A stretch of 64,000 bases of DNA, taken from the IMG/VR virus record IMGVR_UViG_3300021364_000005; one strand, written 5' to 3'. The translations under genes were made by a program, and so were the position numbers. The stretch comes from a virus. Its lineage: Duplodnaviria; Caudoviricetes. A model generated the notes under the pieces. It was not told the DNA's origin, ran no database searches, and was given only the letters and a program-made list of their open reading frames with translations. Below are positions 3 through 26,839 of this stretch, piece after piece. The first letter of the stretch is position 1. Every line of letters begins with the position of its first letter.

Positions 3-3000
3 ACTGCTGGCTATGTTAATTCAGACGATGTTGATTATGAAATAGCAACCTACAATGATATTTTAACACTTGATGCAGCATCTATATTAATAGATCAATA
101 TGTGTGGGTCGGTTTAGATAAAGATAATGACTGGAATGTATTCAAGGTTGAAAATACTGATTTAAAAATTGGTATTAATGACTACCAAACTGATACAAGG
201 CTAACATTTTATAAAGAACATAATTTAGAAATTGGCGATATTTTTATCATAGCTACAGAAAAAAGTGGTGAAGAAAAGTTAGTTAAAGTTAAGAATATTG
301 AAAATGAATATGTCACTATTGATAAAATAGATATTACTGAAACTGACGTACCTATTAGGAAGTTTGTATCTAAAAGATATACTAATATAAGTAATTTTGC
401 AGCAGCAGTTGATAGCACTACTATTAACGATTTAGCATGGGTTGACCAAGTAGAAAATGAAAATACTTGGGGAGTTTACGAAAAAGGAAGTTATAATTAT
501 AGCAAAGTTTCCGAATTAGATAATACAGGAAAAACAGGATATTACTTTAATGATATATCTTCTGATCAAAGAAATGTTTTACTTGCTGTAGGATATACAG
601 GTGATAATCAAGTTGAGGTGTTTTCAAGAGCAACTGATACTTCTAACTTAGTAATAGAAGGTAATATACTCGAAGATACAACAGTAGCAAGTAATCAAAG
701 TTTTGGTAGTAGTGTTGCAGTTAGTCCTGACCAGAAGTATATTGCTGTAGGAAGCCCTGATGCAACAAGTATTAAAACAAACCTTATAGGTTCATGGAAT
801 CCAAACACAGCGTATGCAGTTGGTGATATTTTAAAACACAACAATAGGTATTGGACTGCGCAACGACCAATACTTGCTAGTTCAGGTCCTCAATCTTATA
901 ATACCTACGAACCATATCCTATACTTAAAGATAACTTATCCGATAGTACTGAAGCTAATTTTTTAGTTGCAGGAAACTATCCTCTTACAAATACAAGGGC
1001 TAACCATTTTTTAATTAGAGCAACAGATGTACAATTTAGAGCAATACCGGTAGGGAGTACTCTACATTTACATTGGAACAGGTTTAGCGTAAGCCATATT
1101 AATCCAACTTTACGAAGAGATCCTTTTGAAGGCACAGTAACTGGTTTAGATTATAATTGGCTTACAGGTGCTCATGTTATTTCCGATAAAGTAGATATGA
1201 TTCTTAATATTCCTTTTGCTTTGCTTTCGGTTGCAGTTGGTGATATATTGCAAACAAGCACAGGTGAAGGAGAAATAAATTATGTTTATCAAAACGGAAA
1301 TGGATTTATAGTATATCTAAAAAATACAACAGGACAATTTGCAGCTACAGGAAAAATTTATAATTCAGCTAATGACGAGATTGGCGATTATGAATACGAA
1401 ATACCAGACGATACGCATACAAGTTTAGGCGGCTATTGGATGATTAGTACTAATAGTATTAGTGCAGGCGGTGTAGACTTTATAGATGTAATAGTTGATA
1501 ATTCTCCAGGGCTTATTATTAAAGATGTAAAGCAAGCAGGAGATTTGACTGCTGTAGAAAGTTACTACAATGTTACTGAAGATGTTGGTGTCGTAGGAAC
1601 TATATCCAATGGCAACGAAAAAGTATCACTTATAGGTAAGTTTAAAGACCCAGATACAGGATATCCTGCTCCAAGCGGATACGAATATAGAAATTTATGG
1701 TTTGTAAGACTAGGGTCTACAGCTCCTACATTTAATATTGGCGATTCGATTAGATTACAAGAAAATACTTTCTTGCAAGATATAGAATGGGAAAATGAAT
1801 TTCCAATAATAAATGATAACAGTGATCCAATTTTTGATAATAACCACGAAGTTGTGGAAAAAATTGACGGTTATATAAGAATTCAATTACAACCAGATCA
1901 AGTAGGAACGCATAACTTTGTAAAGGGCGATCAATTAGAAGATGCTAACACTGGCGCAATTTTCAATATATTCCATGCTACTATTGATGCTGGGTTTTTA
2001 ACGCAGACATTGTATGTTAATATTGACGGTACAAGTCCTGTTCAAACATTTAGTAACGGTAGCGATTATGGCGACAGCACAAGAGTTATTCGCAGACGTA
2101 GCGGAGAGGTAAACAGAGACGCAGGATTTATGCAAGAATCAAGTGTAGCAACAGCAGGCGGTTCGATATCTCCTTTATATGTTTTTGATTCAAGACAGCA
2201 CCTTGCTAATCCTGCACTAATTAATTATGATTTGCCTGTCTACGGCACTGATTTATATTATGGTGCTGAATACTGGATTAGACCTCAAGGTAGAACAGAA
2301 CTAGGCGATGCTAGAGCAGCAAATGAACCTACACCAAATAATGCGGATTGGTTACTTACAACTAGCATTGATGTAATACCTACAGGCGGAACATTATATA
2401 CAGGAACAGGATTTGTAAGTGTTTATGAAAGACAAGATATAGGTGTATATGCATTAGAGAAAAGATTTGTTTTACCTTTCAATTTTGCTAATGTTGGTAA
2501 AAATTTAGATTTCAAAATTGTTAATGGTACATATGTCCTTTTCGTAGGTGCTCAAGATAAATTACTATTTGTTAAAAAAGGAACTGAAGGAAGTAGAACA
2601 TTTAATTGGGAAGTAAGTTTAGATAAAGACTTTAGAGATGTATTCTCAATGAGTGCTGAATATTATATAGGCGATGTTGTAATTTATAATGCCGAATTAT
2701 ATAGAGCAAAAACAAATATAGCAAGCGGCAGTTCATTTAATATTCTAAATTGGGACTTAATAGATAACGATATTGATTATACAGGTTATGTTCCTAGACC
2801 TACTACAGTTGCTGGTAATGATAGTAGCTTACTTTCGTTGTTTACTGATATCGATAGTGTAGCTGCTGATTATGAACTTAGCGATAACGGACAAGTCCTT
2901 GCATTATATGCAACAAGAGATGATACAGATCCAAATGTTACACAAAATGATAAAATAGCTGTTTATAGATATGTAGATAATGCATATAGACTACAAAACG

Positions 3001-6000
3001 TTATAGATATTCCAGACGATAGTGTTAACGATCAGGAGTATAAGCATAATTTTTCAATGTCTTCGGATGGATCAAAAATTGCAGTTGGATTATATAAATC
3101 CGATGCAAATGGTTTATACGATGCAGGAAAGGTTTTAGTTTACGAATATCAAAGTGCATCACTTGGTTGGATTTTAATTGACACAATTATTAGTCCATCT
3201 AACGATGATTCTGAAAACTTTGGTTATGATGTTGCTTTTGTAGGGAACAGTTTAGTAGTAAGTAGTTTGTACGGAGATAATAGAAAAGACTGGACACTAT
3301 CAGATAATACTACATTTGATAATGGATTTACAAGTTTTTATCTTAGTGATAATATTGATGTAGGCAGCGTATACGTTTATGATTTGTTACAAGGCAAATA
3401 TATATTTGCTACTAGAATTGATACAAGTGTTAATCTTACTAAAGATTTAAGGAAAAACGGATTACATCTTTACGGGCTAAACGGACACGAAACTCTTTGT
3501 GATTATAAATTTAATAATCAAACTATATGGAATAGGAAGCGCCAGCAATTAAGGGTTGTAGATATTGATAAATTTAAAGGTCCTTTCCTTTACGATAAAT
3601 CTACCAAGGAAATGATTAATTACATTGATATAGTTGATCCTATTCAAGGTAAAATTGCAGGCCCTGCAGAGCAAGAATTAAGATTTAAAAGTCATTGGGA
3701 TCCTGCAATCTTTTCTAATGCAGACGAAGCTGATACAAATATAATTGTTGACAAATTCAAGGCCTGGGGCCCAGAACAAACAGGATACTTATGGTGGGAT
3801 TTATCAACAGCAAGATTTAAAAATCCATACCAAGGCAGCGCAATTTACCAGTTAAACAATTGGAATACATTATTTACAGGTGCAAGCATTGATGTTTATG
3901 AATGGGTAGAATCAGATTATGACCCTGAAAACTGGACAGCTCTTGCAGACACAGAAGAAGGATTAAACGAAGCAATAAGTGGACAGCCTAAATACGGTAT
4001 TGACACATATTCTTTAAAGAAGAAATACGATCCAATCACTCAATCTTTTGTTAACAAATATTATTTCTGGGTAAAGAATAAAAAAACATTGCCTGCTTTA
4101 AAAGAAAGAGTTACTACTGCATTTGATGTTGCAGCGTATATTGCAGATCCTAGATCTGTCAACTATAAGTATGCTGTTTTATTGACATCATTTAGATATG
4201 CTGTACTAAATTCTAGAGCAGATATAAAAGATAGAGATACAGTTGTAAACTTTACATGGCACACTTTAGAAAATAAAGATCTTAATATTCATAATCAGTA
4301 TCAACTTATAAGTGACGGGTTATACACAAGTAAACCTAATGCAGAGCTTGTAACAAAATGGTTTGATAGCTTAGTAGGATTTGATAAAAATCTTAAAGAA
4401 GTTCCTGATCCTATGTTATCACCAAAGCTAAAATACGGCACATTGTCTAGACCAAGACAAAGTTGGTTTGTAAATAGACTTGAAGCATTAAAGGTAGTAA
4501 TTGAACGTGCAAATCTTGCTTTACGTAAAAAAGTTATTGTAGATGATTTTGATTTTACTGCTTTAAATTCTTACGATGAAGAGCCAAGTCCAAGTTCAAG
4601 AGAGTATGATTATGTAGTTGACACTGAAATAGATTTACAGTTTATAGGCGTAAATAATTTTAAACAAGCTGTTCTCACTCCTGTTTGGACTAACGGCAGA
4701 CTTACTGATGTGATCATAACAAATCCTGGATCAGGTTATATTGATCCTAGTTACACAACAGGAACAAGAAAAGGACCTCTAGTTAAAGTAGTAGGCACAG
4801 GTACTGGAGCAGAAGTAGAATGTACTATCAACTCCTTTGGAAGTATTACAAATGTAAGGATCGTTTCGTCGGGTGAAGGTTATGCTGACACAGGTGTTTT
4901 AAGCATAAGAGGGCTTACGGCATTAGTTAACGCAGATAGCACAATTAACAACAAGTGGGCGATCGCTGAATATGCTCCATCTACTCAACTTTGGAATAGA
5001 AAAAGCACACAGAATTTTGACACAAGATTGTATTGGAAGTATGTAGACTGGTTTGCATCAGGATATAATCAATTTACCGAGCCGACATTTATTTTAGAAT
5101 ATTCATACGAGTTAGAATCATTACAAGATAGAATAGGAGATGTTGTAAAGATTAACAATGTAGGAACAGGAGGATGGTTACTTCTTAAAAAGGTAGATGA
5201 TCAAGATAGTGTAGATTACAGTGTAAATTACGAAACAGTTGGTAGACAAAACGGAACTATTGAAATTGATAAAGGGTTATATGACTTCAGAGGAACAATA
5301 AGTGGGTATGATGGTTACAGTTACGATATAACAATTTATGATGGTGTACCTATTTCTGAAACAAGAATAATATTAGAAACTTTATTCAATAGTATATTTG
5401 TTGATGATTTAGCTATAGAATACAATAAAATATTCTTTGCAAGTATTAGGCATATATTCAGTGAAGGCCAAACACCTGACTGGTTATTTAAAACAAGTTT
5501 TGTTAAGGCAAAACATAATTTTGGCAGCTTAGATCAAAAAACACATTTCCAAAACGATAATCTTTCAAGTTATGAAAGCTATATTAGAGAAGTTAAGCCT
5601 TATAAAACACAAATTAGAGAATACATCAGTGCTTATAATAAAATAGATCCAAGTGCATCTAGGGTAACTGATTTTGATTTAATGCCTTGGTATGATCCTG
5701 CCAAAGGTAAAATTGCACCACAAGTGACACAAGTTAAAGATGGTGTCATAACCGTTGATAATAATTTAGAATATCCTTGGAAGAGCTGGATTGACAATGC
5801 AACTTACTATGTAGATAGTATAGAAGTTGTTGATGGCGGATCTAACTTCACCATGGAGCCTCAAATTACATTAGAAGGAGGTGGCGGAGAAGGTGCAACT
5901 GCTAGAGCCTATATTAGTAGAGGTAAAATAACTTCAATAGAAGTGTTAACAAATGGATCAGGATATGTATCAGCACCTACTGTAGTTATTAATGGTAGTC

Positions 6001-9000
6001 AAACTGAAGGCGGAACACCAGCCATAGCAGTGTCAAGAATTGAAAATGACACTGTAAGGAAAATTAAAACCACTATGAAGTTTGATAGAACTAGTGGTGA
6101 ATTTGTTTATTTAGATTTATCAAAGACAGAAACATTTACTAGTTTAACAAACCAATTTAAATTTGACTTAAAATGGCCAATTGATTTTGCTGAGGAATTA
6201 GAAATTGATATAGATGGTGCAGAAGTTTTAAGTAGTTTATATACTATAGGAAATGAACAAGATAAAACATTTAATGAGTATTATATTGAAAGAGGATTTG
6301 TTGAATTTACAGAACCGTTAGATCCAAATCAAATTGTTACTATAAAATATAATATATCTCCTGCGTTATTAAAAGCATCTGATAGAGTGCATCATTTCTA
6401 TAAACCGATATCAGGAATGCCGGGCTACGACCAAGTAGTTAAAGACCTAAGTCAAGTTATGCAAGGTATAGATTACGGTGGCGTAGAAATCACGAGTTTT
6501 GACTTTGATACTGATGCAGGATGGGATTCAGATGGTTGGTATACAAGTGCGTATGATCAGTTTGACGGGCTGTATGAAGATATTGTATTTAGAGCAGACG
6601 GATCGACAAGATCTGTAACATTGACTACACCTTTAGAATTAGGAACAGTTTACAATCTTTATCTTAATGGTGTAAAGGTTGATGATCCTAACTTTGGAAC
6701 TGCGCAACAAACAAATATAAATGCATTAGGAAGTAGTATTACAGGCGACGGAACGTCTACAGAAATTGATGTAAGTAATTATAACATCCAAGACGGCGAT
6801 GTTTTCATTATTAGAAAAATTACTAGTGACGGAACATTTATACCAGACGGAGCAAGCTACGATGCACAATTATCCGGTGGTAACTTTTCCTATGGTAATG
6901 CTAAAGGAATAACAGCAGGCGAAATAATTGTTGACGGTGACGGATTTGTTACTCCTACTACAAGCAGAAGTACAGACGAACACGTTCCAGGACAAGTTTT
7001 AGATACAGTAGATATAAAAGTTTACGAAAGAATAAGTAATGGCCAAGGGGTAATTGTTTCAAGAATACATTATTTCAACGCAGATGAAGAAGAACAAATA
7101 TTAGCAACAAAGCAGTCTGAATTAGCAAGTTTAAATGTAGATTATACAACTGAAGAATCTGATCTTGAAAGTTTTAATTCACAACTTGCTACACTTCAAA
7201 CCGAACTTGCAACTTTAGAAACAGAACGAGACAATTTACAAGCATATGCTGATAGTATTGATCTAACAACATCTGAATATCTTGCTTTACAATCAGAAAA
7301 AACAGATTTAGAAGATGATATTGCAACAGCGCAATCAGAACTTTCTTCGCTACAAAGTCAATTAAGTACTGCCCAAGGAGATCTTGCTAATTTAGAATCT
7401 CAAAAAACATCTGTAGATTCTCAGCTTGTTACAGCGCAGCAAAATTTAGCAACAGCCCAGGGTGAGCTATCAAGTTTACAGCAACAATTAAGTGCTGCAC
7501 AGGCAGACTTGCAAAATTATTTGCCCTCTGATCCTGAGTACGGGCAAATACAAGCGTTAATACAAAGTTTACAATCTCAGATTACAGCTAAAAATGGACA
7601 AATTAGTAATCTACAGTCTCAAATTTCTAGCTTACAGAGTCAGTCTAGTTCTTTAGCAAGCCAGATTGCAAGTAAACAAAGTGAGGTAACTTCGTTACAA
7701 GGACAAGTAACATCTAAGAACACTCAGATAACTAGTTTGCAAAATGATTTACAAACAGTTAACACTGAAATAAGCGATTATCAGCAAGCATATAATCTTG
7801 CATTAGCTGATGTGTCTGCTAAAGAAGGTGAAATAAGTAATAAAGAAACTGATATTAGTATTAAACAAGGACAGATAGCAACACAGAATACTTTAGTTAG
7901 CAATATTGAAAACGCAATAGCAGCAAAAGAAGTAGAAGTAGATCAAGCACAAGCTGCAATTGATGCGTTATTGGTAGATTACGATATTGGTATAACACCA
8001 TTAAAACAAGAAAACTTAATTGTAAGATTTAGTAACGGAACTGATGACAATAGAATATTAGATTATTCAGAATATACTGTTAACTACTCTGCAAAAACAA
8101 TTAGTCTTAAGAATGCACCTCCAAGTAGAACTACTATAAACACATTAGTAGTAGGTAGCAATGGTAGTGAAATATTAGACAGTGGAAGATTTATTGGTGA
8201 TGGAAGCACAACTGAATTTTTAACTAAACTTACATATCAAGAAAATTTACAAGCTGTAATTACTGTAAACGGAATTCAACGAAGTGCAAAAGCTTCAGAA
8301 GGAAAAGCAGCAGATGTAGAAATACTTATGAGCAGCGATGATTATGAATTAGAAAACGCTGTACTATTAAGTTTTGGCGCTGCACCAAAAGCAGGAGATT
8401 ACATCAATTACATAATATTTGGTAGCGATACTGAAACATTTAGTGAAGTAATTATTGATGATTTCCAAGCTGACGGAAGTACTGCAACATTTGAACTAAC
8501 GCAGCAGCCTTATAACAAGCAGCCTGCGGATATTCATACTTTAGTTCTAGTAGGAAATAACGTACTAGATACAGGATATAACACAAGATTTAATAAGACA
8601 AGTGCAAAGTTTTATCCTCTAAGTCAGCAAAACATACCTTACTACAGTAAAAATCCGCAGGAAATTATTGTTTATGCAAATGGTATTTTACAAACACATA
8701 CAGAAAGTTACAGATGGTATACTGAAAATAGTACATTAGAATTATTTGATGGAAAGTTTGCTACAGATGATGTTATAGAAGTTTATACAAAAAATGAAAA
8801 TTATGAAATTAGTAATTCATTCATTACATTAAGTAATATACCAACAGCTGGTACCATTAAAGTATTCCAATTTAGTAATCATGATTTGCTAGAAATAAAG
8901 CGTTCTACTCAAACAGTTTTGAAGAGAGCAACACTTGTTGTTGGTACAGATGATTGGAGAGAATATAGTGATGGTGCAATAGGAAGAATACGTTTAGAAA

Positions 9001-9878
9001 ATCCAGTGATAAATGAAAATTATGTATGGATTGCATTAAACGGAACACTGTTAAGTCCAAACACAGATTATGGATTGCTACCTGATTACAAAACAGTAGA
9101 AATTTATAAAGAAATACAAGAAGGTAACGAAATAGATGTAATTCACTTTAGTGGCGATGTATCAAGTGAACGTTTTGGATACAAACAATTTAAAGATATT
9201 TTAAATAGAACACACTACAAGAGAATTAATGCCCAAACTGAAACTGTTTTAGATCAACCTCTGGCGCAAAATGATTTAAGAATATATGTTAAGGATGGAA
9301 GTAAATTAGATGAACCTAATAAAAAATATAACTTACCTGGCATATTATTTGTTAATGGCGAACGTATAGAATACTTTGTAAAAGAAGGCAACGTTTTGAG
9401 ACAAATAAAAAGAGCTACGCTTGGTACTGGTATAAACAAAACTTTACCAGTAGGAACTATAGTTAGCAATTTAGGTGCTGCTGAAACAGTTCCATATCAA
9501 GATAAAACTTTGATTACTGAATTTACATCAGATGGATCGTCGGCTGACTTTGAATTAGACTTTTCAGCACAGTATGGCGTAAACCAATTTGAAGTTTTTG
9601 TTGAAGGCAAGCGTTTAAGAAAAACAGCTATTGAAGTTTTTGATCCTGCAATTGATATTGTAAGTCCGCAAGCAGATGTAACACATCCAGCAGAATTCAG
9701 TGTACATGGCACAAATGATAATATTTTAAGATTGTTAAATGTTCCAGATGCAGGAACAAAAATTAAAGTAGTGAGAAAAATAGGATCTCAATGGAGACAA
9801 GAAGGAGTCAGTATGAAAAGCAGTAAAACTTACATTACTGATTTCTTAAGAAAAGGAACAACCGGGCTACCCGAATAA
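3..9878 (+). CDS. Giant virion structural protein (baseplate/tail-associated), 5'-truncated by the window edge
   Basis: The frame is open from the window start (TAGYVNSDD...), so the ORF-track start at 102 is internal. It has beta-propeller-type repeats (FGSSVAVSPDQKYIAVGSP, FGYDVAF), two CBM5/12-like segments, GSGY-type beta repeats, several F.xDGST..F repeats and a ~300 aa coiled-coil insert. It sits directly upstream of tail-fibre genes. Confidence 0.75.
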   Translation, partial: TAGYVNSDDVDYEIATYNDILTLDAASILIDQYVWVGLDKDNDWNVFKVENTDLKIGINDYQTDTRLTFYKEHNLEIGDIFIIATEKSGEEKLVKVKNIENEYVTIDKIDITETDVPIRKFVSKRYTNISNFAAAVDSTTINDLAWVDQVENENTWGVYEKGSYNYSKVSELDNTGKTGYYFNDISSDQRNVLLAVGYTGDNQVEVFSRATDTSNLVIEGNILEDTTVASNQSFGSSVAVSPDQKYIAVGSPDATSIKTNLIGSWNPNTAYAVGDILKHNNRYWTAQRPILASSGPQSYNTYEPYPILKDNLSDSTEANFLVAGNYPLTNTRANHFLIRATDVQFRAIPVGSTLHLHWNRFSVSHINPTLRRDPFEGTVTGLDYNWLTGAHVISDKVDMILNIPFALLSVAVGDILQTSTGEGEINYVYQNGNGFIVYLKNTTGQFAATGKIYNSANDEIGDYEYEIPDDTHTSLGGYWMISTNSISAGGVDFIDVIVDNSPGLIIKDVKQAGDLTAVESYYNVTEDVGVVGTISNGNEKVSLIGKFKDPDTGYPAPSGYEYRNLWFVRLGSTAPTFNIGDSIRLQENTFLQDIEWENEFPIINDNSDPIFDNNHEVVEKIDGYIRIQLQPDQVGTHNFVKGDQLEDANTGAIFNIFHATIDAGFLTQTLYVNIDGTSPVQTFSNGSDYGDSTRVIRRRSGEVNRDAGFMQESSVATAGGSISPLYVFDSRQHLANPALINYDLPVYGTDLYYGAEYWIRPQGRTELGDARAANEPTPNNADWLLTTSIDVIPTGGTLYTGTGFVSVYERQDIGVYALEKRFVLPFNFANVGKNLDFKIVNGTYVLFVGAQDKLLFVKKGTEGSRTFNWEVSLDKDFRDVFSMSAEYYIGDVVIYNAELYRAKTNIASGSSFNILNWDLIDNDIDYTGYVPRPTTVAGNDSSLLSLFTDIDSVAADYELSDNGQVLALYATRDDTDPNVTQNDKIAVYRYVDNAYRLQNVIDIPDDSVNDQEYKHNFSMSSDGSKIAVGLYKSDANGLYDAGKVLVYEYQSASLGWILIDTIISPSNDDSENFGYDVAFVGNSLVVSSLYGDNRKDWTLSDNTTFDNGFTSFYLSDNIDVGSVYVYDLLQGKYIFATRIDTSVNLTKDLRKNGLHLYGLNGHETLCDYKFNNQTIWNRKRQQLRVVDIDKFKGPFLYDKSTKEMINYIDIVDPIQGKIAGPAEQELRFKSHWDPAIFSNADEADTNIIVDKFKAWGPEQTGYLWWDLSTARFKNPYQGSAIYQLNNWNTLFTGASIDVYEWVESDYDPENWTALADTEEGLNEAISGQPKYGIDTYSLKKKYDPITQSFVNKYYFWVKNKKTLPALKERVTTAFDVAAYIADPRSVNYKYAVLLTSFRYAVLNSRADIKDRDTVVNFTWHTLENKDLNIHNQYQLISDGLYTSKPNAELVTKWFDSLVGFDKNLKEVPDPMLSPKLKYGTLSRPRQSWFVNRLEALKVVIERANLALRKKVIVDDFDFTALNSYDEEPSPSSREYDYVVDTEIDLQFIGVNNFKQAVLTPVWTNGRLTDVIITNPGSGYIDPSYTTGTRKGPLVKVVGTGTGAEVECTINSFGSITNVRIVSSGEGYADTGVLSIRGLTALVNADSTINNKWAIAEYAPSTQLWNRKSTQNFDTRLYWKYVDWFASGYNQFTEPTFILEYSYELESLQDRIGDVVKINNVGTGGWLLLKKVDDQDSVDYSVNYETVGRQNGTIEIDKGLYDFRGTISGYDGYSYDITIYDGVPISETRIILETLFNSIFVDDLAIEYNKIFFASIRHIFSEGQTPDWLFKTSFVKAKHNFGSLDQKTHFQNDNLSSYESYIREVKPYKTQIREYISAYNKIDPSASRVTDFDLMPWYDPAKGKIAPQVTQVKDGVITVDNNLEYPWKSWIDNATYYVDSIEVVDGGSNFTMEPQITLEGGGGEGATARAYISRGKITSIEVLTNGSGYVSAPTVVINGSQTEGGTPAIAVSRIENDTVRKIKTTMKFDRTSGEFVYLDLSKTETFTSLTNQFKFDLKWPIDFAEELEIDIDGAEVLSSLYTIGNEQDKTFNEYYIERGFVEFTEPLDPNQIVTIKYNISPALLKASDRVHHFYKPISGMPGYDQVVKDLSQVMQGIDYGGVEITSFDFDTDAGWDSDGWYTSAYDQFDGLYEDIVFRADGSTRSVTLTTPLELGTVYNLYLNGVKVDDPNFGTAQQTNINALGSSITGDGTSTEIDVSNYNIQDGDVFIIRKITSDGTFIPDGASYDAQLSGGNFSYGNAKGITAGEIIVDGDGFVTPTTSRSTDEHVPGQVLDTVDIKVYERISNGQGVIVSRIHYFNADEEEQILATKQSELASLNVDYTTEESDLESFNSQLATLQTELATLETERDNLQAYADSIDLTTSEYLALQSEKTDLEDDIATAQSELSSLQSQLSTAQGDLANLESQKTSVDSQLVTAQQNLATAQGELSSLQQQLSAAQADLQNYLPSDPEYGQIQALIQSLQSQITAKNGQISNLQSQISSLQSQSSSLASQIASKQSEVTSLQGQVTSKNTQITSLQNDLQTVNTEISDYQQAYNLALADVSAKEGEISNKETDISIKQGQIATQNTLVSNIENAIAAKEVEVDQAQAAIDALLVDYDIGITPLKQENLIVRFSNGTDDNRILDYSEYTVNYSAKTISLKNAPPSRTTINTLVVGSNGSEILDSGRFIGDGSTTEFLTKLTYQENLQAVITVNGIQRSAKASEGKAADVEILMSSDDYELENAVLLSFGAAPKAGDYINYIIFGSDTETFSEVIIDDFQADGSTATFELTQQPYNKQPADIHTLVLVGNNVLDTGYNTRFNKTSAKFYPLSQQNIPYYSKNPQEIIVYANGILQTHTESYRWYTENSTLELFDGKFATDDVIEVYTKNENYEISNSFITLSNIPTAGTIKVFQFSNHDLLEIKRSTQTVLKRATLVVGTDDWREYSDGAIGRIRLENPVINENYVWIALNGTLLSPNTDYGLLPDYKTVEIYKEIQEGNEIDVIHFSGDVSSERFGYKQFKDILNRTHYKRINAQTETVLDQPLAQNDLRIYVKDGSKLDEPNKKYNLPGILFVNGERIEYFVKEGNVLRQIKRATLGTGINKTLPVGTIVSNLGAAETVPYQDKTLITEFTSDGSSADFELDFSAQYGVNQFEVFVEGKRLRKTAIEVFDPAIDIVSPQADVTHPAEFSVHGTNDNILRLLNVPDAGTKIKVVRKIGSQWRQEGVSMKSSKTYITDFLRKGTTGLPE
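7086..7973 (+). repeat. Heptad coiled-coil insert (two ~146 aa arms around a PSDP turn) in the giant structural protein
   Basis: S/Q/L/T/A-rich heptad pattern. The only prolines in the segment are in LPSDP at 7521-7535. Confidence 0.75.
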
Positions 9879-10511: not shown

Positions 10512-12566
10512 ATGCCATATACTATAAGACATACTGATGAACCAAACAACGGATCTATCACAGTAGAAGATAGAACAGTTGACGAGTCAACAAGTTTAAA
10601 ATTACCTGGCAAAAATGTTACAGCATATGGCACAGTAATTGGCGAAAACTTTTTACACTTATTAGAAAATTTTGCTGCAACAACAGCACCAAGTAATCCT
10701 GTTCAAGGTCAACTTTGGTACGATAGTACTCCAAATGCAAATACATTAAAAATTTATGATGGTACAACATGGTTACCGTCAGGTGGAGTTAAAAAAGGAA
10801 ATTCAGAGCCTTTAGCAGCAAACAGTCTACTGGGCGATTTGTGGGTAAACACAGATACTCAGCAACTGTATTTGTTTACAGGATCTAACTGGATTTTAGT
10901 AGGACCTGATTTTAGTGAGGGGTTAAGCACAGGTATTAAACCGCAAACTATTCTTGGTAAGGACAATGTTTCATACACTGTAATGACAGTAGAAGTAAAA
11001 GCAAAGCCTGTAATTATTATATCATCGAATAGTTTTGAACCTAAAGCAGCTATAGGTGGATTTGCATCAATTGAACCTGGTATTAATCTTAGCACTGAAA
11101 ATATAACAAATCAAGGGATACCAGAGTATAACGGTCCTGCTAATACTGCATCGAATCTACAAATAGGTAGCTTAAAAATACCTGCATCAACATTTGTTAG
11201 AAATGACATCAGTAACACAATTTCAGAAGAACTTAAAATCAGTACAAACAACGGTATAAAGTTAGGTGAAGCACAAAATTATAGTTTGACCGTTGACGGT
11301 GCAAGTGCTAGTTTAACAAACCAAGCACCTACTTCAAGTATTGATTTAAGGATAAACACTGGCACACAAGTTACGCCTATTATGAGATTAAATTACGATA
11401 AAACTGTAGGTATAAACAGAACAGATCCTTCAGAAGCACTAGATGTAAATGGTAACATTAGAACTAATGCAAAAATGTTAGTAGCAGGTACTGACAATGC
11501 TACAGGACTTAATACAGGTGCGTTACAAACTACAGGAGGCGCCAGCATTGCAAAAGATTTTTATGTCCATCAAGATGTTGACATAAACGGTGCATTAAGT
11601 GTAGGAGGAAATATTACTCCTACTACAAATAACTCTACATTCTTAGGAAGTAATAGTTTTAAATTTGGTGGAGTTTATGCATCTACTTTTTATGGAAATT
11701 TAGTAGGAAATATTACAGGTACTGTAACAGGGGTAATGAATGGACCAGCTACTAAACTAGCTAGTCCTACAGACTTTAGTTTACAGGGAGATGTAAGCAG
11801 TAACACTATATCCTTTAACGGACAACAAACTGGAGGAGTAGCAACATTTACTACAGCTATAGACCCAGACTTTATCAACAATAAACCAGCAGCAACATCA
11901 ATAGGTGATACAGATGAAATACTTATCAATCAGCCTACCGATGTAAATGCACCTTTAAAGAAAGCAACAAAGGCAGCATTCTTAGGAAGTATTCCAAAAA
12001 CACCTCCAGGAGTTATACTTCCTTATGGCGGCGATAGTGATCCTGATCCTGCAAGTGTTGGAGGCGGTGTTTGGCTTTTATGTGACGGCAGAGAAGTTTT
12101 AATTAGTGCATATCCTGATCTATATGCACTAATAGGTTTAAAGTTTAAAGGAAATCCAGCAACAAGTTATTTTGGTCTACCTGATATGAGAGGTAGGGTA
12201 CCAATGGGGGCTGATAATCTTGGCGGTGTAAGCGCAGATAGAGTTACAGCTAATACAGCAGATATAATAGGTAATGCAGGTGGTTCTGAAAAGCACACAA
12301 TAGTACAATCTGAATTACCAGATCACGTGCATGATATGTATAATGATAATAACAATAGACAATATTATGCAGCTAGAACAACACCTGAAAGTGCAACTAC
12401 AGGAACAGTAAGTATTCCAACACCAGCAGGAGTAAACACGCAAACATCAAGTGCTATTTTAGATAGTGGCGGTATTAAAAATTATTCTGCGCAGACTGCT
12501 ATGGATATAATGAGTCCTTATATGACACTTAATTATATTATCTACACCGGTAAGGACATAACATGA
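10512..12566 (+). CDS. Tail fibre protein with C-terminal phage tail collar domain
   Basis: Collar-type motif PPGVILPYGG...WLLCDG...YPDLYALIG...FGLPDMRGRVPMG. The N-terminal ENFLHLLENFA/GQLWYD module is shared with the next two genes. Confidence 0.8.
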   Translation: MPYTIRHTDEPNNGSITVEDRTVDESTSLKLPGKNVTAYGTVIGENFLHLLENFAATTAPSNPVQGQLWYDSTPNANTLKIYDGTTWLPSGGVKKGNSEPLAANSLLGDLWVNTDTQQLYLFTGSNWILVGPDFSEGLSTGIKPQTILGKDNVSYTVMTVEVKAKPVIIISSNSFEPKAAIGGFASIEPGINLSTENITNQGIPEYNGPANTASNLQIGSLKIPASTFVRNDISNTISEELKISTNNGIKLGEAQNYSLTVDGASASLTNQAPTSSIDLRINTGTQVTPIMRLNYDKTVGINRTDPSEALDVNGNIRTNAKMLVAGTDNATGLNTGALQTTGGASIAKDFYVHQDVDINGALSVGGNITPTTNNSTFLGSNSFKFGGVYASTFYGNLVGNITGTVTGVMNGPATKLASPTDFSLQGDVSSNTISFNGQQTGGVATFTTAIDPDFINNKPAATSIGDTDEILINQPTDVNAPLKKATKAAFLGSIPKTPPGVILPYGGDSDPDPASVGGGVWLLCDGREVLISAYPDLYALIGLKFKGNPATSYFGLPDMRGRVPMGADNLGGVSADRVTANTADIIGNAGGSEKHTIVQSELPDHVHDMYNDNNNRQYYAARTTPESATTGTVSIPTPAGVNTQTSSAILDSGGIKNYSAQTAMDIMSPYMTLNYIIYTGKDIT

Positions 12567-14362
12567 GCTACAAAATAAACAAAACAGATGGCACTCTTTT
12601 AGTAGATCTAATAGATGGCGTTCAAAATGATAAAGCAACTGATATTATCTTGATCGGAAGAAATAGTACAGGATTTGGCGAAGCATTTAACGAAAATCTT
12701 GTAAAAATGTTAGAAAACTTTTCTAATACAAGTGCTCCAGCAAATCCTTTAGAAGGACAGTTATGGTTTGATACCACTACTGACACTTTGAAAGTATATG
12801 ATGGGACTGATTTTAAAAATGCTGGTGGTGCATATGTTCAAGCATCTGTGCCTAGCATGGCAAAAGGCGATTTATGGTATAACACAACAACTAATCAAAT
12901 GTTTACATTTGATGGAGATGACACACAACTTGTAGGACCGTTGTATACTAACACTCAAGGAATAACAGGCGAAGTACCTGACACAATACAAGATTTACAA
13001 GGATTTCCTAGGGCAGTAATTAAACATTATGTAGGTGGAAACTTGCTAGGTTTGTGGAGTAATTTAGAATTTAAAATTTCTGCTACAAATACTGATGATG
13101 TGATTCTTGGATTAGAACAAGATGCGTTAAACAATAGAATAGTCAGACGAGGATTTAATATCCTTGATAGCGATTATTTAATTAGAGGTACGGTTACTAA
13201 TGCTCAAGGAATTGGCGGAGTTGATATAAGTAAACTGGTTCGTACAGATGTAACTAGCACAATAGATGCAAGCCTAATAATTAGAGGCCCAGACGGCTTA
13301 AAGTTTAGTAGTGTTCATCAACAAAAGTATAATCCAGCAGAGTTTGCTATTACAAACTTAGTTGCAAATGATGACTTATCTTTAAACGTTGTAGGAAGTG
13401 CTACAGGAGCATTAACACAATCTGCTCTTTACATTGATAGCAGCACAGCACATATAGGTATGTATAATAGAGTGCCCGAAGCTATGCTTCATATAGGTAC
13501 GTCTACAAACCCTGGTAGCTTAATTGTAGAAGGCGATTTAACAGTCAAAGGAAATAGTGCATTTATCGAAGCAAGCACTTTGCGAGTAGAAGATAAACAA
13601 ATTGAGCTAGGAATGCTTGCTGATAGTACGCAAGGTAATGATGCTGCTATAGACGGCGCTGGCATAGTGGTTGCATCATCAGATGGCAGTAAAGATTTAC
13701 TTTGGGTACAAAGCACAGGTTCTTGGACATCAAACCAAGATTTTGATTTGCAAGCAGGTAAAGAATATAAAATTAACGGAGTATCGGTATTAACAGGTAC
13801 AGCATTGGGTGCAAATATTACAAGTGCTCCTGGACTAACTTCGATTGGCACACTTACAAGTTTTGGAACTAGTTTCTTAACGATTAGTGGAACTTCAATA
13901 ACAACAACTAATGGACAGCATTTAAATCTTGCTCCTGCCGGAGATGTTGTTGTTAACAATAGTGTTGTTAGAGGATTAACAGCTGGCAATACAGATGATA
14001 GTGCAGCTACAAAAGGATATGTTGATACACAAGTAAACAGCAGTGATATTGCTATTGAAATGGATGCTACCGGATTATCTAATACTGATATAAGAAATTA
14101 TTTAAATCAACTATTTCCTACAAATGCACAGAATAGAAGTTGTAGAGTATTAGCTACAAGTTATGCATTTACAGGCACAGCAGATGTAGAAACTGCTAAA
14201 CAAACAACAACAGTAACAGTAGATAGAAACGGTAATTTAGAGTCAGAAAATGTAATCAAAACTGTTTCATTTAGTGATGCTGATGTAACAGTAACAATGA
14301 CACCAACGAGGGTGGTTAAGACATTCCAGTGGGATGGAAGCACATGGCTTTTCATATCATAG
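12563..14362 (+). CDS. Tail fibre/baseplate fibre paralog
   Basis: N-terminal ENLVKMLENF...GQLWFD module; G/T/S-rich fibre-like body. Confidence 0.7.
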   Translation: MSYKINKTDGTLLVDLIDGVQNDKATDIILIGRNSTGFGEAFNENLVKMLENFSNTSAPANPLEGQLWFDTTTDTLKVYDGTDFKNAGGAYVQASVPSMAKGDLWYNTTTNQMFTFDGDDTQLVGPLYTNTQGITGEVPDTIQDLQGFPRAVIKHYVGGNLLGLWSNLEFKISATNTDDVILGLEQDALNNRIVRRGFNILDSDYLIRGTVTNAQGIGGVDISKLVRTDVTSTIDASLIIRGPDGLKFSSVHQQKYNPAEFAITNLVANDDLSLNVVGSATGALTQSALYIDSSTAHIGMYNRVPEAMLHIGTSTNPGSLIVEGDLTVKGNSAFIEASTLRVEDKQIELGMLADSTQGNDAAIDGAGIVVASSDGSKDLLWVQSTGSWTSNQDFDLQAGKEYKINGVSVLTGTALGANITSAPGLTSIGTLTSFGTSFLTISGTSITTTNGQHLNLAPAGDVVVNNSVVRGLTAGNTDDSAATKGYVDTQVNSSDIAIEMDATGLSNTDIRNYLNQLFPTNAQNRSCRVLATSYAFTGTADVETAKQTTTVTVDRNGNLESENVIKTVSFSDADVTVTMTPTRVVKTFQWDGSTWLFIS

Positions 14363-14363
14363 G

Positions 14364-14370
14364 ATAAATA
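14364..14370 (+). promoter_or_regulatory. T4-like late promoter motif ATAAATA
   Basis: ATAAATAC in the gap before the ATG at 14397; AGGGG SD-like sequence downstream. Confidence 0.5.
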
Positions 14371-14396
14371 CATTATAGTTAGGGGTAACACGAGAT

Positions 14397-15860
14397 ATGG
14401 CATACCAAATAGACAATTTTAGAGGACAATTTTTAACAACTGTTGATGATGGAACTATCAACAATGCCACCGATCTAAAACTTGTAGGTAAAAACTACGC
14501 AGGATATGGTGAAATACAAAACGAAAATTTTGTTCATTTATTAGAAAATTTTGCATCAGGCCAAGCACCAGGTAAGCCTATTCAAGGACAACTATGGTTT
14601 GATGCTACATCGGGAGCAGAGAAGTTAAAATTTTACGACGGTACTGCTTGGAGAACAGCTGGAGGCGCTGAAGTAAGCCCGCAGCCAGGCCCAACCGGAT
14701 TAGTTGAAGGTGACTTTTGGTGGGATACAACAAACGAACAGTTATATGCTAGAGGTGCAAACGGTTTTGTACTTGTAGGACCGCAAAGCACAGGCGCAGG
14801 AAATGTTACCCAAATGCGCAGTGTTACACTAAACGACAACGGAACTCCTGCCACAGCTCATAATGTAATACTTGCAACAGTTGATAATGTTGTACAATAT
14901 ATCATTAGCAATTCTACATTTACTATTTCAGCAGCTGATGCTATCGTAGGATTTGATGTTGTACATGAAGGACTAACATTAAAAAATACCCAAAATAATT
15001 ATGCAGGACAAACACAAGGTGCTCCTCGATATTGGGGTACAGCAACTAATGCTGATAGACTAGGCGGCGTTGCTGCAAATCAATACCTTACAGCTCTTAA
15101 TGCAACGTTTACACAAAATGTTCATTTTGATGATCCAGGATTTACAGTAGGCGATGATAATGATTTGCTTGTTGACATCAACGGTAACGAAGCTAGAGTT
15201 CAGCAAAAAGTAGGCGACACTATTGGTTTTTATGTTAACGACCAAGGTACATTACGCAGTGTAATGAGTGTTAAGCACAGTTCAGTAGAGCCGGGTGCTG
15301 CTACTGCTACTTTAGGGGTTGCAAATAATAGATGGGATACAGTTTTTGCTGATAACTTTGATGGAAATGCAACAAGTGCAACTGGACTTAAATTAACAGG
15401 AAACATTTATTATCCTGATTTTAACGATAATCCAAATACAGTAGCATTAAGAGATGCCAACGGCGACCTTGAAGCAAGATTTTTTAACGGAACTGCAACT
15501 GCTGCAAAATATGCAGACCTTGCAGAGATTTACAGCACTAGCGAAGAATTACCAACAGGAACAGTAGTAGCTGTAGGTGGTGAAGCAGAAGTCCGTCCAG
15601 CTAAAGTAAGTGATTTTGTAGTTGGAGTTATTTCAGCAGAACCTGCTTACTTAATGAATAGCACAGCAGATGGACAAGCTGTTGCTTTAAAAGGGCGTGT
15701 GCCTGTAAGAGTGAAAGGACCTGTTTCAAAAGGACAAGCTGTATATGCTTGGCAAGATGGTGTTTGTAGTACAATAGCATCAACTGGCATGGTAGGTATT
15801 GCTTTAGAAGGCTGTAATGATGATTCGGAATGCCTAATTGAGTGTGTTTTGAAGGTATAA
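14397..15860 (+). CDS. Tail fibre paralog with a C-terminal intramolecular-chaperone (peptidase G2-like) domain
   Basis: Shared N-terminal ENFVHLLENFA/GQLWFD module. C-terminal YADLAEIY...GVIS..PAYLMN...VALKGRVPVRV resembles autocleaving fibre chaperones. Confidence 0.7.
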   Translation: MAYQIDNFRGQFLTTVDDGTINNATDLKLVGKNYAGYGEIQNENFVHLLENFASGQAPGKPIQGQLWFDATSGAEKLKFYDGTAWRTAGGAEVSPQPGPTGLVEGDFWWDTTNEQLYARGANGFVLVGPQSTGAGNVTQMRSVTLNDNGTPATAHNVILATVDNVVQYIISNSTFTISAADAIVGFDVVHEGLTLKNTQNNYAGQTQGAPRYWGTATNADRLGGVAANQYLTALNATFTQNVHFDDPGFTVGDDNDLLVDINGNEARVQQKVGDTIGFYVNDQGTLRSVMSVKHSSVEPGAATATLGVANNRWDTVFADNFDGNATSATGLKLTGNIYYPDFNDNPNTVALRDANGDLEARFFNGTATAAKYADLAEIYSTSEELPTGTVVAVGGEAEVRPAKVSDFVVGVISAEPAYLMNSTADGQAVALKGRVPVRVKGPVSKGQAVYAWQDGVCSTIASTGMVGIALEGCNDDSECLIECVLKV

Positions 15861-22100: not shown

Positions 22101-22440
22101 TAAAACATTTAAGTTGTACTTGATAAAAGGCCAAAGGGTTGATTTAAGTATTAAAATATCTGAATCTATGGTTGTTGGATATAGATTTAGGATAAAAGAG
22201 TTTGAAAATATTATAAAAGGTTGGGAAAACGGATTTGAAGGTGATACTTCTGGAGGATATGTTTTTATAGAATACAAAAAATATGGACCACGACCAGAAC
22301 GTAGATACGATCCATATGTGCGGTTTAGTATTAGCAACAATGGACTTACTAATCATCACAGGGTAACATATGATGATATGTATGACCTTACCAAAGAATG
22401 GAATCACCAAAAAACAAACAAAATGTATTGGGACGTATAA
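22090..22440 (+). CDS. Hypothetical protein
   Basis: In-operon ORF overlapping both neighbours. Confidence 0.55.
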   Translation: MKFDKTFKLYLIKGQRVDLSIKISESMVVGYRFRIKEFENIIKGWENGFEGDTSGGYVFIEYKKYGPRPERRYDPYVRFSISNNGLTNHHRVTYDDMYDLTKEWNHQKTNKMYWDV

Positions 22441-23522
22441 TGTATAGATACGAGGATATAAAGGAAGTACATTTAGAAGTTACACAACGCTGCCAAGCGG
22501 CGTGTCCTATGTGTGACCGAAATATGAATGGCGGCGCTGATAATCCTCATATCACTAATGCAGAATTGTCTTATAAAGATTGTGTTAACATATTTAAACC
22601 TGCCTTTATAAAACAGTTAAAGACAATGTATATGTGTGGTAACTTAGGAGATCCTATTGTTGCAAAAGATACATTAGAAATATTCAAATATTTTAGAGAA
22701 CACAATCCTAATATGTGGTTGAGCATGAATACAAACGCAGGAGCAAAGGATGAACAGTGGTGGCGTGACCTGGCGCAAACTTTTGGTCGTATGGGCGCAG
22801 TTATCTTTAGTGTTGACGGGCTTAGTGATACTAATCACATTTATAGACAAAATGTTGTTTGGGATAATGTAGAACGTAATATGAAAGCGTTTATCAATGC
22901 AGGCGGCAGAGCTCGTTGGGACTTTTTAATTTTTGGACATAACGAGCATCAAGTCGACGAAGCCGAAAAACTTGCAAATGAATGGGGCTGCGAAAAATTT
23001 ATTAAAAAGAAAACCGGTAGATTTATTACAGTTAAAAGCGAAGCAAAAGAACAGCACCAAGCAACAAACAGAAAAGGCGAGGATACTGCTACTCTTGTAA
23101 AGCCTAAGAAAAAAGAAAATGTAAATCTTGCACTTTTAAAACAAAAAGAAATTGAAAAAACATATGGCAGTATGAAAGACTACTATAACCAATGTTCTAT
23201 AAAATGTAAAGTTGCTGAACAAGGTAGTATTTTTGTAACAGCAGAAGGACTACTTATGCCCTGTTGTTGGACTGCCGGGCGTATGTACAAATGGTGGCAT
23301 CCAGATCCTAAAGTAGAGCAGGTATGGGATTTTATAGATGCAGCTGGAGGTAAAGAAGGTATAAGCATTATAGACAACGACATTGAAGATGTAGTTGGCG
23401 GAAAACTTATAAGCTCTATAACTGAAAGCTGGAATAAAAATAGTTTAGATGAAGGCAAGTTGGGAGTTTGTGCGCAAAAATGTGGAACAGAATTTGATCC
23501 ATTTGCGGAGCAATTTAAGTGA
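22440..23522 (+). CDS. Radical SAM protein with C-terminal SPASM/twitch-like domain
   Basis: CQAACPMC (CxxxCxxC), GNLGDP, SVDG; C-terminal C...MPCC...CAQKC. TAATG start at 22440. Confidence 0.9.
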   Translation: MYRYEDIKEVHLEVTQRCQAACPMCDRNMNGGADNPHITNAELSYKDCVNIFKPAFIKQLKTMYMCGNLGDPIVAKDTLEIFKYFREHNPNMWLSMNTNAGAKDEQWWRDLAQTFGRMGAVIFSVDGLSDTNHIYRQNVVWDNVERNMKAFINAGGRARWDFLIFGHNEHQVDEAEKLANEWGCEKFIKKKTGRFITVKSEAKEQHQATNRKGEDTATLVKPKKKENVNLALLKQKEIEKTYGSMKDYYNQCSIKCKVAEQGSIFVTAEGLLMPCCWTAGRMYKWWHPDPKVEQVWDFIDAAGGKEGISIIDNDIEDVVGGKLISSITESWNKNSLDEGKLGVCAQKCGTEFDPFAEQFK

Positions 23523-24250
23523 TATTTCCTCCTACTAAAAAATTACATCTCGGACTGACTTATAAATGCACTCTTGCTTGCTTAGAATGTTGTAGAACTA
23601 ATACTCGTAGGGATCAAATTCCACATATAACAGAAGAGTCTCATTTAAAGTGGGAGCAGTATAAAGATCTTTTACAAAGACAGTATAAGCATATTGAAAT
23701 GTGTGGTAATTGGGGAGACCCGATTTATTATCCTGATTTAATTCAATTAGTAAATTATATACACGAAGTCCAAGATGATTGTTACATAAGTCTGCATACA
23801 AACGGAAGTTATGTTAAGCCTAATACATGGCAAAGGTTAGCAGAAGCAATGTCAAAAAAAGATGAACTAATTTTTAGTTTAGACGGCACAAAGGATACTA
23901 ACCACAAATACAGGATCAACAGTGATTGGAAAAGTATTGCTGCTGGCGTGAACACAGTTTTTAATTATAAACACAGACCTTTGTTAACACAAAAAACTCT
24001 TTTATTTTCATATGTAGAACAAGATATGAAAAATGTTATACATCAAGCTATGAATATGGGATTTGATCGTATACGTTTTGATTATCCTATTACATCAGAA
24101 AAAACCGCAGATTTAAAACCTACTCGCACGGTTGAGGAAAATATTTTAGAAATGTCTAAATATGTTACCCCAACAAGGATCAGAAGATTAGGCGCTTCCT
24201 TTCCTGTTGTTTATGTTTACTTTAGGAGTGAAAATGTCTTTAAAGATTGA
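23519..24250 (+). CDS. Radical SAM protein lacking its own SPASM domain
   Basis: CTLACLEC, GNWGDP, SLDG; paralog of 22440 that ends before the auxiliary-cluster domain. Confidence 0.85.
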   Translation: MIFPPTKKLHLGLTYKCTLACLECCRTNTRRDQIPHITEESHLKWEQYKDLLQRQYKHIEMCGNWGDPIYYPDLIQLVNYIHEVQDDCYISLHTNGSYVKPNTWQRLAEAMSKKDELIFSLDGTKDTNHKYRINSDWKSIAAGVNTVFNYKHRPLLTQKTLLFSYVEQDMKNVIHQAMNMGFDRIRFDYPITSEKTADLKPTRTVEENILEMSKYVTPTRIRRLGASFPVVYVYFRSENVFKD

Positions 24251-24515
24251 TCCCGCTTGTATCAAACACCAAGGTTATTTTCTAGAATTAGATGGAACTT
24301 ATCTTCCGTGTTGCTGGTTGTTGACTGACTGGAAAGCAATAGACGAGCTGAAAGAACTTTATGGTGAAGATTGGGATAAACTTAAAATACAAAATAATTC
24401 TCCTGAAGAAATTGAAAAGCTGTGGCAGAAAATTGTAGATACTTGGTATGACAAACCTATAAGTAGGTGTGCAATTATGTGTCCTAAAAAAGGTAGGTTT
24501 GCTGAATATGAATAG
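24234..24515 (+). CDS. Stand-alone SPASM/twitch Fe-S domain protein
   Basis: AGGAG at 24224-28 before the ATG at 24234; PAC...LELDGTYLPCC...RCAIMC. Confidence 0.75.
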   Translation: MSLKIDPACIKHQGYFLELDGTYLPCCWLLTDWKAIDELKELYGEDWDKLKIQNNSPEEIEKLWQKIVDTWYDKPISRCAIMCPKKGRFAEYE

Positions 24516-25773: not shown

Positions 25774-26839
25774 ATATCTAAAACAACCTCATAAGATACA
25801 GTTTGAACTTAGTAGTATGTGTAATGCATTGTGTCTAGGTTGTGTTCGTACGGATACAAGAAACTTTAATCAGTCAAAGCCACTTATTCCTAAAAAACAA
25901 ATTGTAGAAGTTGATACATTTGTAAAGCTACTTTCAAGCGAAGAAATGTCTACAGTTAAAATACTAGAGTTTTGTGGAACTGTTGATGATCCTCTTATGC
26001 ATCCAGATTTTCTTACTCTACTTGAACGAGCATACGAAATAAATCCAAATTATAAAATAAACATTCATACAAATGCAAGTCTACGAAACGAAAATGATTT
26101 TGTAAAATTAGCACAAATTTTAAAGAAGTTTAAAGAACACGAACTATTGTTTAGTATTGATGGCATTGGAGAAACACATACTATATACAGACAGTTTACA
26201 AATTATGATAAAATAATTTCAAATGCAAAAGCATTTATAAATGAAGGCGGCAGGGCTGTATGGCAATTCTTAATTTTTCCTTGGAATGAACATCAAGTCG
26301 AGGAAGCAAAAGAAATAAGCAAAGAATTAGGATTTGCTGTATTTTTACGAAGACATGATAGATCTATTGCAACTGGGCTAGGTTTAGAAAAAATACAAGG
26401 TAAGAAAAGAAAAAATACTTTGTACGATATAGTTGAAGAACATTCCATGGAGCAACTTTTAGAAAGTTATGAAAATATTAACGAAGTAGAAATTGCTTGT
26501 AATAACCAAGAAAAAGGAATGTATTTTGTAAGTTTTGATAGTAAGTTATGGCCATGTTGTTTTATTCCTAACGGATTTTTACAACAGCAACCTCGCAAAG
26601 TAGAATATTTACAAAAAAGATTATATGATACTTACGGTAAAGATTTTAATGATCTAACAAAAAAGACTGTGAAAGAAATTGTTACCAATGACTTTTACAA
26701 AAATGATCTTGTAGAGAGCTGGGATAACCCTGTAGCTTTAGGAAAATGTGGCAAGATAACAAGATGTGCAGAAACTTGTAATGTTTATAAATTAAAAGCA
26801 TTGCCAATTGGTAAACCAAAGGTGTATAGTAATGTCTAA
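25766..26839 (+). CDS. Radical SAM protein with C-terminal SPASM/twitch-like domain
   Basis: CNALCLGC, GTVDDP, SIDG; C-terminal C...WPCC...CAETC. Confidence 0.9.
   Translation: MNEYLKQPHKIQFELSSMCNALCLGCVRTDTRNFNQSKPLIPKKQIVEVDTFVKLLSSEEMSTVKILEFCGTVDDPLMHPDFLTLLERAYEINPNYKINIHTNASLRNENDFVKLAQILKKFKEHELLFSIDGIGETHTIYRQFTNYDKIISNAKAFINEGGRAVWQFLIFPWNEHQVEEAKEISKELGFAVFLRRHDRSIATGLGLEKIQGKKRKNTLYDIVEEHSMEQLLESYENINEVEIACNNQEKGMYFVSFDSKLWPCCFIPNGFLQQQPRKVEYLQKRLYDTYGKDFNDLTKKTVKEIVTNDFYKNDLVESWDNPVALGKCGKITRCAETCNVYKLKALPIGKPKVYSNV

Follow-up and report, generated by a model that had tools for sequence, protein, structure and literature searches.

The 64,000-nucleotide stretch of viral DNA analysed here (the window; IMG/VR virus record IMGVR_UViG_3300021364_000005, Duplodnaviria; Caudoviricetes) opens within the gene of a giant virion protein, and our subject is a long heptad-repeat segment of that protein, which is predicted to form an antiparallel coiled-coil hairpin standing out from a beta-sandwich domain. 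The reading frame is open at its 5′ edge and encodes a piece of 3,291 amino acids (P0001), which by database search corresponds to the C-terminal 3,291 residues of a 5,186-residue protein (P0004), with an offset of 1,895 residues. The features that bear on the hairpin are given below, with residues numbered as in P0001, the letters a to g denoting heptad positions, and pLDDT standing for the predicted local distance difference test score of the AlphaFold2 models.

3..9878, + strand: C-terminal part of the giant virion protein, whose N-terminal 1,895 codons precede the window; gp7 position of the baseplate module
6825..7034, + strand: conserved segment upstream of the insert (DGDGFVTPTTS..E.VPGQVLDT) with invariant residues; pLDDT below 50 in both models
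7053..7076, + strand: strand preceding the hairpin (residues 2351-2358; DSSP 151-158, pLDDT about 93), the N-terminal edge of the insertion site
7068..7988, + strand: entire insert, as compared with homologs that lack it (residues ~2356-2662, 307 amino acids; the anchors lie 307 residues apart here)
7083..7511, + strand: arm 1, predicted ascending helix (residues 2361-2503); a = Leu, d = Leu/Ala; net charge about -24
7236..7271, + strand: arm-1 "knuckle", AYADSIDLTTS (RDANDLTxSxY in relatives), with a register shift, a five-residue helix break and partial conservation
7512..7535, + strand: hairpin tip, N-Y-L-P-S-D-P-E-Y (non-helical model residues 304-310), highly conserved
7533..7967, + strand: arm 2, predicted descending helix (residues 2511-2655); a = Ile/Val, d = Leu/Lys; net charge about -9
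7791..7835, + strand: arm-2 discontinuity, DYQQAYNLALADV, a register shift at core positions 241-255 of 303 with conserved aromatics
7980..8420, + strand: strands resuming after the hairpin (DYDIG...) and small beta-sandwich domains (DSSP 460-461 and from 472 to 606)

An initial annotation, made by a model from the letters and reading frames of the window, had delimited a heptad segment at nucleotides (nt) 7086-7973 with its sole prolines (PSDP) at the midpoint and 146 codons on either side, and both the coordinates and the proline count agree with our analysis. The segment corresponds to P0001 residues 2362-2657 and the PSDP motif (nt 7524-7535) to residues 2508-2511, which by those boundaries leaves 146 residues before the turn and 146 after it. 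No prolines other than P2508 and P2511 occur from residue 2330 to residue 2665, against an expectation of about ten; with proline making up 3.3% of the protein, two or fewer in 296 residues would arise by chance with P = 0.003. According to a register tracker, the heptads are continuous in both arms apart from one discontinuity in each, located at a similar distance from the base (56-66 residues in arm 1 and 48-62 in arm 2). Arm 1 is rich in Leu and acidic residues, as had been described (L 17%, D+E 18.5%, I 2%; charge +4/-28). For arm 2, which had been called Ile/Lys-rich, the first half of the description stands (I 10%) but the second does not, as its Lys content of 4.8% matches the whole-protein mean of 4.9% and the arm is net acidic (+7/-16), so that it is Lys-rich only relative to arm 1; the rod as a whole is net acidic as well (+11/-44 over both arms). 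Of the six long homologs, four show the Leu/Ile asymmetry between the arms and two show it less strongly, a pattern that fits packing of arm 1 on arm 2 and not of an arm on itself. In the packing suggested by the heptads, arm 1 would contribute Leu at a and Leu/Ala at d, facing Ile/Val at a and Leu/Lys at d from arm 2, with Gln prevailing at the flanking e and g positions; the conserved N-Y-L-P-S-D-P-E-Y tip would close the rod, and a matched knuckle would sit at roughly one third of its height. At nt 7820-7870, within arm 2, lies a 21-nt array of 2.4 copies; one arm as a duplicate of the other was considered and found unsupported, the two sharing weak compositional similarity only, with no DNA repeats beyond this array.

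The AlphaFold2 model, which covers residues 2201-2830 and is based on an alignment of 117 sequences, places a strand (model residues 151-158), a helix (161-218), a five-residue break, a second helix (224-303), a seven-residue turn with PSDP, a third helix (311-455), and then beta domains, in that order. The pLDDT stands at 93-98 for the greater part of the coil and falls to 71-84 around the tip. Helix boundaries in P0001 numbering are residues 2361-2418 and 2424-2503 for arm 1 and 2511-2655 for arm 2, and the arm lengths measured from conserved flanking motifs are 151 and 148 residues; for 143-151 residues at ~0.1485 nm per residue the rod would be 21.2-22.4 nm long, in line with the ~22 nm first estimated. 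The top structural matches (Foldseek, VIA-align) were all single-chain antiparallel hairpins aligned across both arms. The best was PrgA (6z9l_A; Z 16.0, root-mean-square deviation 5.0 Å over 287 residues, model 162-455); the match to the chemoreceptor 2ch7_B aligned 301 residues (model 156-459), and further matches included Smc 5xg2 (Z 14.8), 5nnv (Z 14.0), 7zr1, 3wuq, Rad50, the dynein stalk, and HlyD 5c21_B (Z 11.3). Both the model and its hairpin-only top matches thus bear out the helix-turn-helix that had been proposed in preference to disorder or a one-way coil. The flanks of the hairpin are beta-rich in the insert-bearing model and in that of a no-insert homolog, as had also been anticipated.

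To locate the insertion site, conserved residues 2201-2355 and 2663-2830 were taken as anchors and found in 120 homolog clusters of ~5,000 residues each; the homologs read were the best 120 and the best 150 of ~600+ family members. The anchors are ~13 residues apart in about 110 of the 120 clusters; in the ten that bear an insert, the spacing is 62, 65, 84, 129, and 293 residues in one cluster each, 307 in three, and 321 in two. In the AlphaFold2 model of the no-insert homolog P0012, a strand (155-161), a six-residue loop, and another strand (168-170) occupy the insertion point, so the insert replaces a six-residue interstrand loop, as expected of an element looped out of a beta domain, which obliges both ends of the 307-residue insert to lie side by side. 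The coil segment is absent from the RaK2 and PA5oct proteins, the long form is carried by 3 of 80 IMG/VR loci, and another 104 representatives, from clusters at 50% identity, yielded no new coil at the main site. In a phylogeny of the flanks alone, all ten rows with an insert fall into a single clade (support 98, one change), within which an inner clade (support 100) unites the six long forms with the cluster P0009. The suggestion that the insert is lineage-specific is borne out by this distribution, which is best explained by a hairpin that arose once, in one sub-lineage of the giant-protein family.

Beside the topology of the insertion site, the structure prediction, and the complementary arms, a fourth independent line of evidence that agrees on an antiparallel hairpin is the paired change in arm length, which we measured between fixed boundary motifs in the ten clusters. 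The arms are 28/26, 28/29, 38/38, 60/61, 144/141, 151/148 (three clusters), and 158/155 (two clusters) residues long. The six long forms all share the knuckle sequence, and in each of them arm 1 is three residues longer than arm 2; every indel among them is exactly 7 residues, and the number per arm is equal (0/0, 1/1, or 2/2). Indels symmetric about the turn, with equal heptads per arm, had been set beforehand as the test of an antiparallel hairpin, and in the six long forms the symmetry is exact. P0009, whose flanking domains are 61% identical to those of the window protein, keeps the first ~28 and the last ~26 residues and is, as judged from its sequence, a case of symmetric loss of the distal part that left a shorter hairpin; in the sister clade there are 28-61 residues per arm. 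Over 13 hairpins at all sites (including those in other loops that are described below), the two arm lengths correlate with r = 0.9999 and differ by at most 3 residues. Growth and shrinkage by equal amounts in both arms only, ever since the origin of the hairpin, is the best explanation of these lengths.

A one-way alternative, in which the segment forms a parallel homo-trimeric coiled-coil fibre of the P22 gp26 or T4 fibritin type and PSDP is merely a hinge, draws on sequence matches to tail needles (PDB 4lin gp26, weakly and to arm 1, E 5e-7; phrog_1219). Those matches are limited to one arm and reflect heptad composition, and generic long coiled coils score alike. In addition, the turn lies at the midpoint, the arm lengths co-vary, a loop of six residues bridges the insertion site in homologs, so that the insert's ends are not far apart, the model and all of its structural matches are hairpins, and the T4 protein at the gp7 position is a monomer. 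A trimeric fibre is thus hardly tenable, and a one-way trimer or a disordered linker is very unlikely altogether.

We conclude, with a probability of roughly 0.78, that residues 2361-2655 form an intramolecular two-stranded antiparallel coiled-coil hairpin of ~145-150 residues per arm, ~21-22 nm long, looped out from a beta-sandwich domain of the protein at the gp7 position. The rod would emerge from a short loop that links two neighbouring strands of this small domain, which belongs to the C-terminal quarter of the 5,186-residue protein. Several points weigh against this conclusion. The antiparallel geometry was read from the structural matches of the model and not from measured contacts, and since just seven aligned sequences span the long coil, it is chiefly the heptad pattern that makes the model confident there. 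The turns of P0009 and P0013 were chosen by eye, and P0009 has no proline there. For a randomly placed turn, the joint chance of such equal arms is about 4e-15 over nine length classes, a value that overstates their independence because the classes are phylogenetically related and that is to be taken as an upper bound on significance. No homology to T4 gp7 was found by phmmer or by a search of a C-terminal profile against PDB sequences, so that six copies per virion are an analogy only.

Comparable architectures are known from unrelated systems. In periplasmic adaptors (HlyD, AcrA, MacA, EmrA), an antiparallel two-helix hairpin is likewise looped out of a beta domain, and within this family the hairpin differs in length between homologs and its tip is conserved. 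There is, however, no sequence relationship with the phage protein, the host domain of the latter is a beta sandwich and not a lipoyl domain, and the phage rod is about twice as long and has no known TolC-like partner. The enterococcal PrgA stalk (6z9l) is also a long single-chain antiparallel coiled coil, but it has a globular domain at its far end, which the alignment skips (model 162-455 vs chain 164-673), where the phage tip has seven residues; at 12% identity, the match is a resemblance of fold only. The arms of SMC, Rad50, and MukB and the dynein stalk are long intramolecular antiparallel coiled coils with local discontinuities too. Those arms and stalks join ATPase heads to a hinge, a hook, or a microtubule-binding domain, whereas the phage rod has beta-strand flanks and a seven-residue apex, and a family search of its flanks gave no match to any ATPase family; without ATPase heads or an apical domain, the rod is not an SMC/Rad50 arm. 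Coiled-coil rods on phage particles are known as well, namely the T4 fibritin whiskers and the P22 gp26 tail needle, but these are one-way parallel trimers, unlike a single chain that returns to its origin. The element in the window is therefore of a known architecture, a single-chain hairpin with a beta domain, and is not a member of the adaptor or PrgA families. We found no description of such an element in the literature on coiled-coil hairpins in baseplates and on RaK2-like baseplate structures.

The phage is an uncultured marine jumbo myophage, among whose baseplate genes the giant protein takes the place of T4 gp7, and gene order in relatives supports the baseplate context that had been suggested for the rod. 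The family profile phrog_10938 ("virion structural protein") is matched by P0001 with an E-value of 6.6e-69 and by the N-terminal 2,000 residues of P0004 with 2.6e-240. RaK2 gp465 (3,326 amino acids) and PA5oct gp355 (3,857 amino acids; annotated as detected in virions by mass spectrometry) are 25-32% identical to P0001 residues ~1179-1907, and their genes lie directly 3′ of an annotated baseplate wedge subunit gene. In two marine relatives (L003 and L004), the baseplate genes run in the order gp5-like hub/lysozyme, gp25-like, gp6-like, giant protein, a 200-residue protein, and fibre-like genes, headed in one of the two by a gp53-like gene; their gp6-like wedge protein is ~1,150 residues long and matches phrog_10646 and phrog_219. 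RaK2 and PA5oct likewise have gp5-like, gp25-like, gp6-like, giant-protein, and fibre-like genes in this order. The giant gene thus stands directly after the gp6-like wedge gene in L003, L004, RaK2, and PA5oct, the same position as that of T4 gp7, although the marine giant proteins are about five times longer than T4 gp7. This upstream context is taken from relatives, the window's own upstream gene lying beyond the 5′ edge, and the genes downstream of the giant reading frame in the window are the same as in the marine relatives. The guanine plus cytosine content of the window is 32-41%.

Because direct homology to T4 gp7 was not detected, the term "gp7-like" refers to gene position only. For the host region of the hairpin, Foldseek returned weak similarities to N-terminal domains of the phage baseplate and tailspike kind and, at an E-value of about 1e-2, to unidentified chains of 5iv5, an entry for the T4 baseplate; sequence searches of solved structures with the N-terminal 2,500 residues, the window piece, and a C-terminal 460-residue profile returned no baseplate protein. 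Each T4 tail contains six copies of gp7, which is monomeric (PMC3004832, Table 1), and by analogy with it a virion may carry six rods. The baseplates of very large uncultured marine phages are unexplored, and proteins of 5,000 residues at the gp7 position have no solved relative; the predicted rod would give such a giant baseplate protein one well-defined structural element. Knowledge of the working of contractile tails is unchanged by the finding.

Other features of the giant protein were noted in passing. It has a weak FG-GAP repeat and two CBM_5_12 carbohydrate-binding modules that pass the Pfam cut-off with E-values of 1.5e-6 and 2.8e-8, one at window 795-869 (+) and the other ahead of the window, at residues 1424-1453 of P0004. 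The segment at 6825-7034 (+), upstream of the insert (DGDGFVTPTTS.GPEE.VPGQVLDT), has many invariant residues across >100 homologs; its low-pLDDT residues are 75-144 in the insert model and 84-147 in the no-insert model, and it might fold only against a partner in the assembled baseplate.

What the rod does can be approached from where it is conserved. Within the insert, conservation peaks at residues ~2503-2508 (the tip), ~2540-2543, and 2654, and is concentrated at the tip, a region of SLQSQ repeats, and the base, with partial conservation at the knuckle. In relatives the tip reads LPSDPEY, LPGSSEY, or LPGTTQY. Variable residues of low complexity (Ser/Thr/Asn/Ala) fill the surface positions b, c, and f, and Gln prevails at e and g. 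Total protein length and gene neighbourhood are unchanged in the rod-free homologs, and no extra gene accompanied the hairpin in the neighbourhoods examined. Since the surface varies, conservation is concentrated at a few places, no gene accompanies the rod, and most of the family and one close relative are rod-free or carry a reduced rod, we tentatively favour, at a little under even odds, a dispensable solvent-exposed projection with the tip as its contact part, that is, a whisker or spacer and not a core element of assembly. The conserved tip, not the variable Ser/Thr/Gln surface, would then make the contact.

The same conservation bears on another arrangement, in which the hairpin bundles with that of a neighbouring wedge or with another virion protein, giving a bundle of four or more helices that would brace the periphery of the baseplate or hold fibres. 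A conserved tip and knuckle would suit contact sites, the top structural matches include the chemoreceptor hairpins 2ch7 and 3zx6, which work as dimers in four-helix bundles, and relatives with two hairpins in adjacent domains exist. However, the b, c, and f positions are poorly conserved along most of the rod, its strong net acidity disfavours self-association, no additional gene goes with the hairpin in the neighbourhood, and the lengths of the two hairpins match in only one of the two relatives measured (P0011, not P0013). We regard such bundling as rather unlikely. There is a slim chance that the rod is instead a molecular ruler or strut, with an exact length needed to build or trigger the baseplate, as might be read from a long clade that stays at 144-158 residues per arm and keeps its arms equal. 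About 110 of the 120 clusters do without the rod at the same protein length and in the same gene neighbourhood, though, and P0009, with 61% identical flanking domains, has it reduced to 28/26; the sister clade has 28-61 residues per arm, and one-heptad steps (about 1 nm) are tolerated. Close relatives without a long rod thus make a strict assembly ruler unlikely. The natural length series (none, about 4, 6, 9, 12, and 21-23 nm) could be used to probe what the rod does, and the gain or loss of one heptad per arm makes it an unusually clean case of antiparallel coiled-coil evolution.

Hairpins and other insertions are also found at further loops of the giant proteins. In the sister clade (P0011, P0013, and P0058), a second hairpin occupies a loop ~170-250 residues upstream, in the preceding beta domain (consensus RIDDPNF...PTN), at P0011:4112-4242, P0013:4247-4363, and P0058 ~4165-4300; it is absent from the window's protein. 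Its arms are 60/58 (P0011) and 53/52 (P0013) residues long, and its tip reads TPG(T/S)(P/Q)EY. When the hairpins at the two sites of P0011 are aligned tip on tip, they share 38% identity over 109 residues (E 8e-15), a similarity suggestive of intragenic copying. A third site was found in P0175 (3719-3886), a more distant homolog of 4,511 residues; it is a loop that follows VKVNNTIL..YKYTPNF in the beta domain downstream, and its hairpin has arms of 83/81 and the tip TPGTPQY. This hairpin aligns tip on tip with the upstream hairpin of P0011 (E 7e-7) and, from knuckle to tip, with the window hairpin (E 4e-5). Its base resembles the knuckle of the window hairpin, so that the long hairpin may consist of a shorter module lifted by an extra stalk at the base. 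In P0208 (~1900-2010), a 92-residue beta-rich and Gly/Thr-rich insert without a coil lies between the same anchors, which indicates that the loops of this chain of domains are general insertion hot spots. Three homologs have the motif TPGT(P/S)EY outside coils as well, in a loop of their conserved C-terminal domain (R..LTPGTPEY.EY..LTTG) at P0079:4899, P0178:1735, and P0224:4366, so that the tip motif alone is not diagnostic.

Taken further, these sites would allow the hairpin to be a portable, length-tunable "cassette" with a P-G/S-x-P-E/Q-Y tip, copied among at least three loops and selected in paired heptads for the reach of its tip, as a stand-off gauge or tip sensor. We consider this improbable. 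If it were true, the reach of the tip would be matched to the thickness of the host's outer layer or to the position of the fibres, and the ~4 to 23 nm series would be a record of host-driven tuning.

A number of other candidates were rejected. The Pfam coil matches (Cast, Filament, Phage_scaffold, DUF7491, and others) fell below the curated cut-offs and were attributed to coiled-coil composition, as were the PHROG matches "minor head protein", "SbcC-like", "tail needle", and "Rz-like spanin". P0124-P0130, further long proteins with matches to the coil, proved to be generic multi-repeat coiled coils and not relatives of the hairpin, the PSDP turn aligning to nothing in P0124 and P0125. A DNA search of the phage collection with nt 6000-9000 returned no matches.

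Elsewhere in the window, a run of radical SAM genes at 22398-34006 (+) includes one for an 804-residue protein with two such domains. Closer to the giant gene, three consecutive fibre-like genes (684, 599, and 487 amino acids) occupy window 10512-15860 (+); their products have a common N-terminal module (phrog_14394, phrog_15511) and differ in their C-terminal parts, and on this sequence pattern they look like alternative fibres that would dock on one common site.

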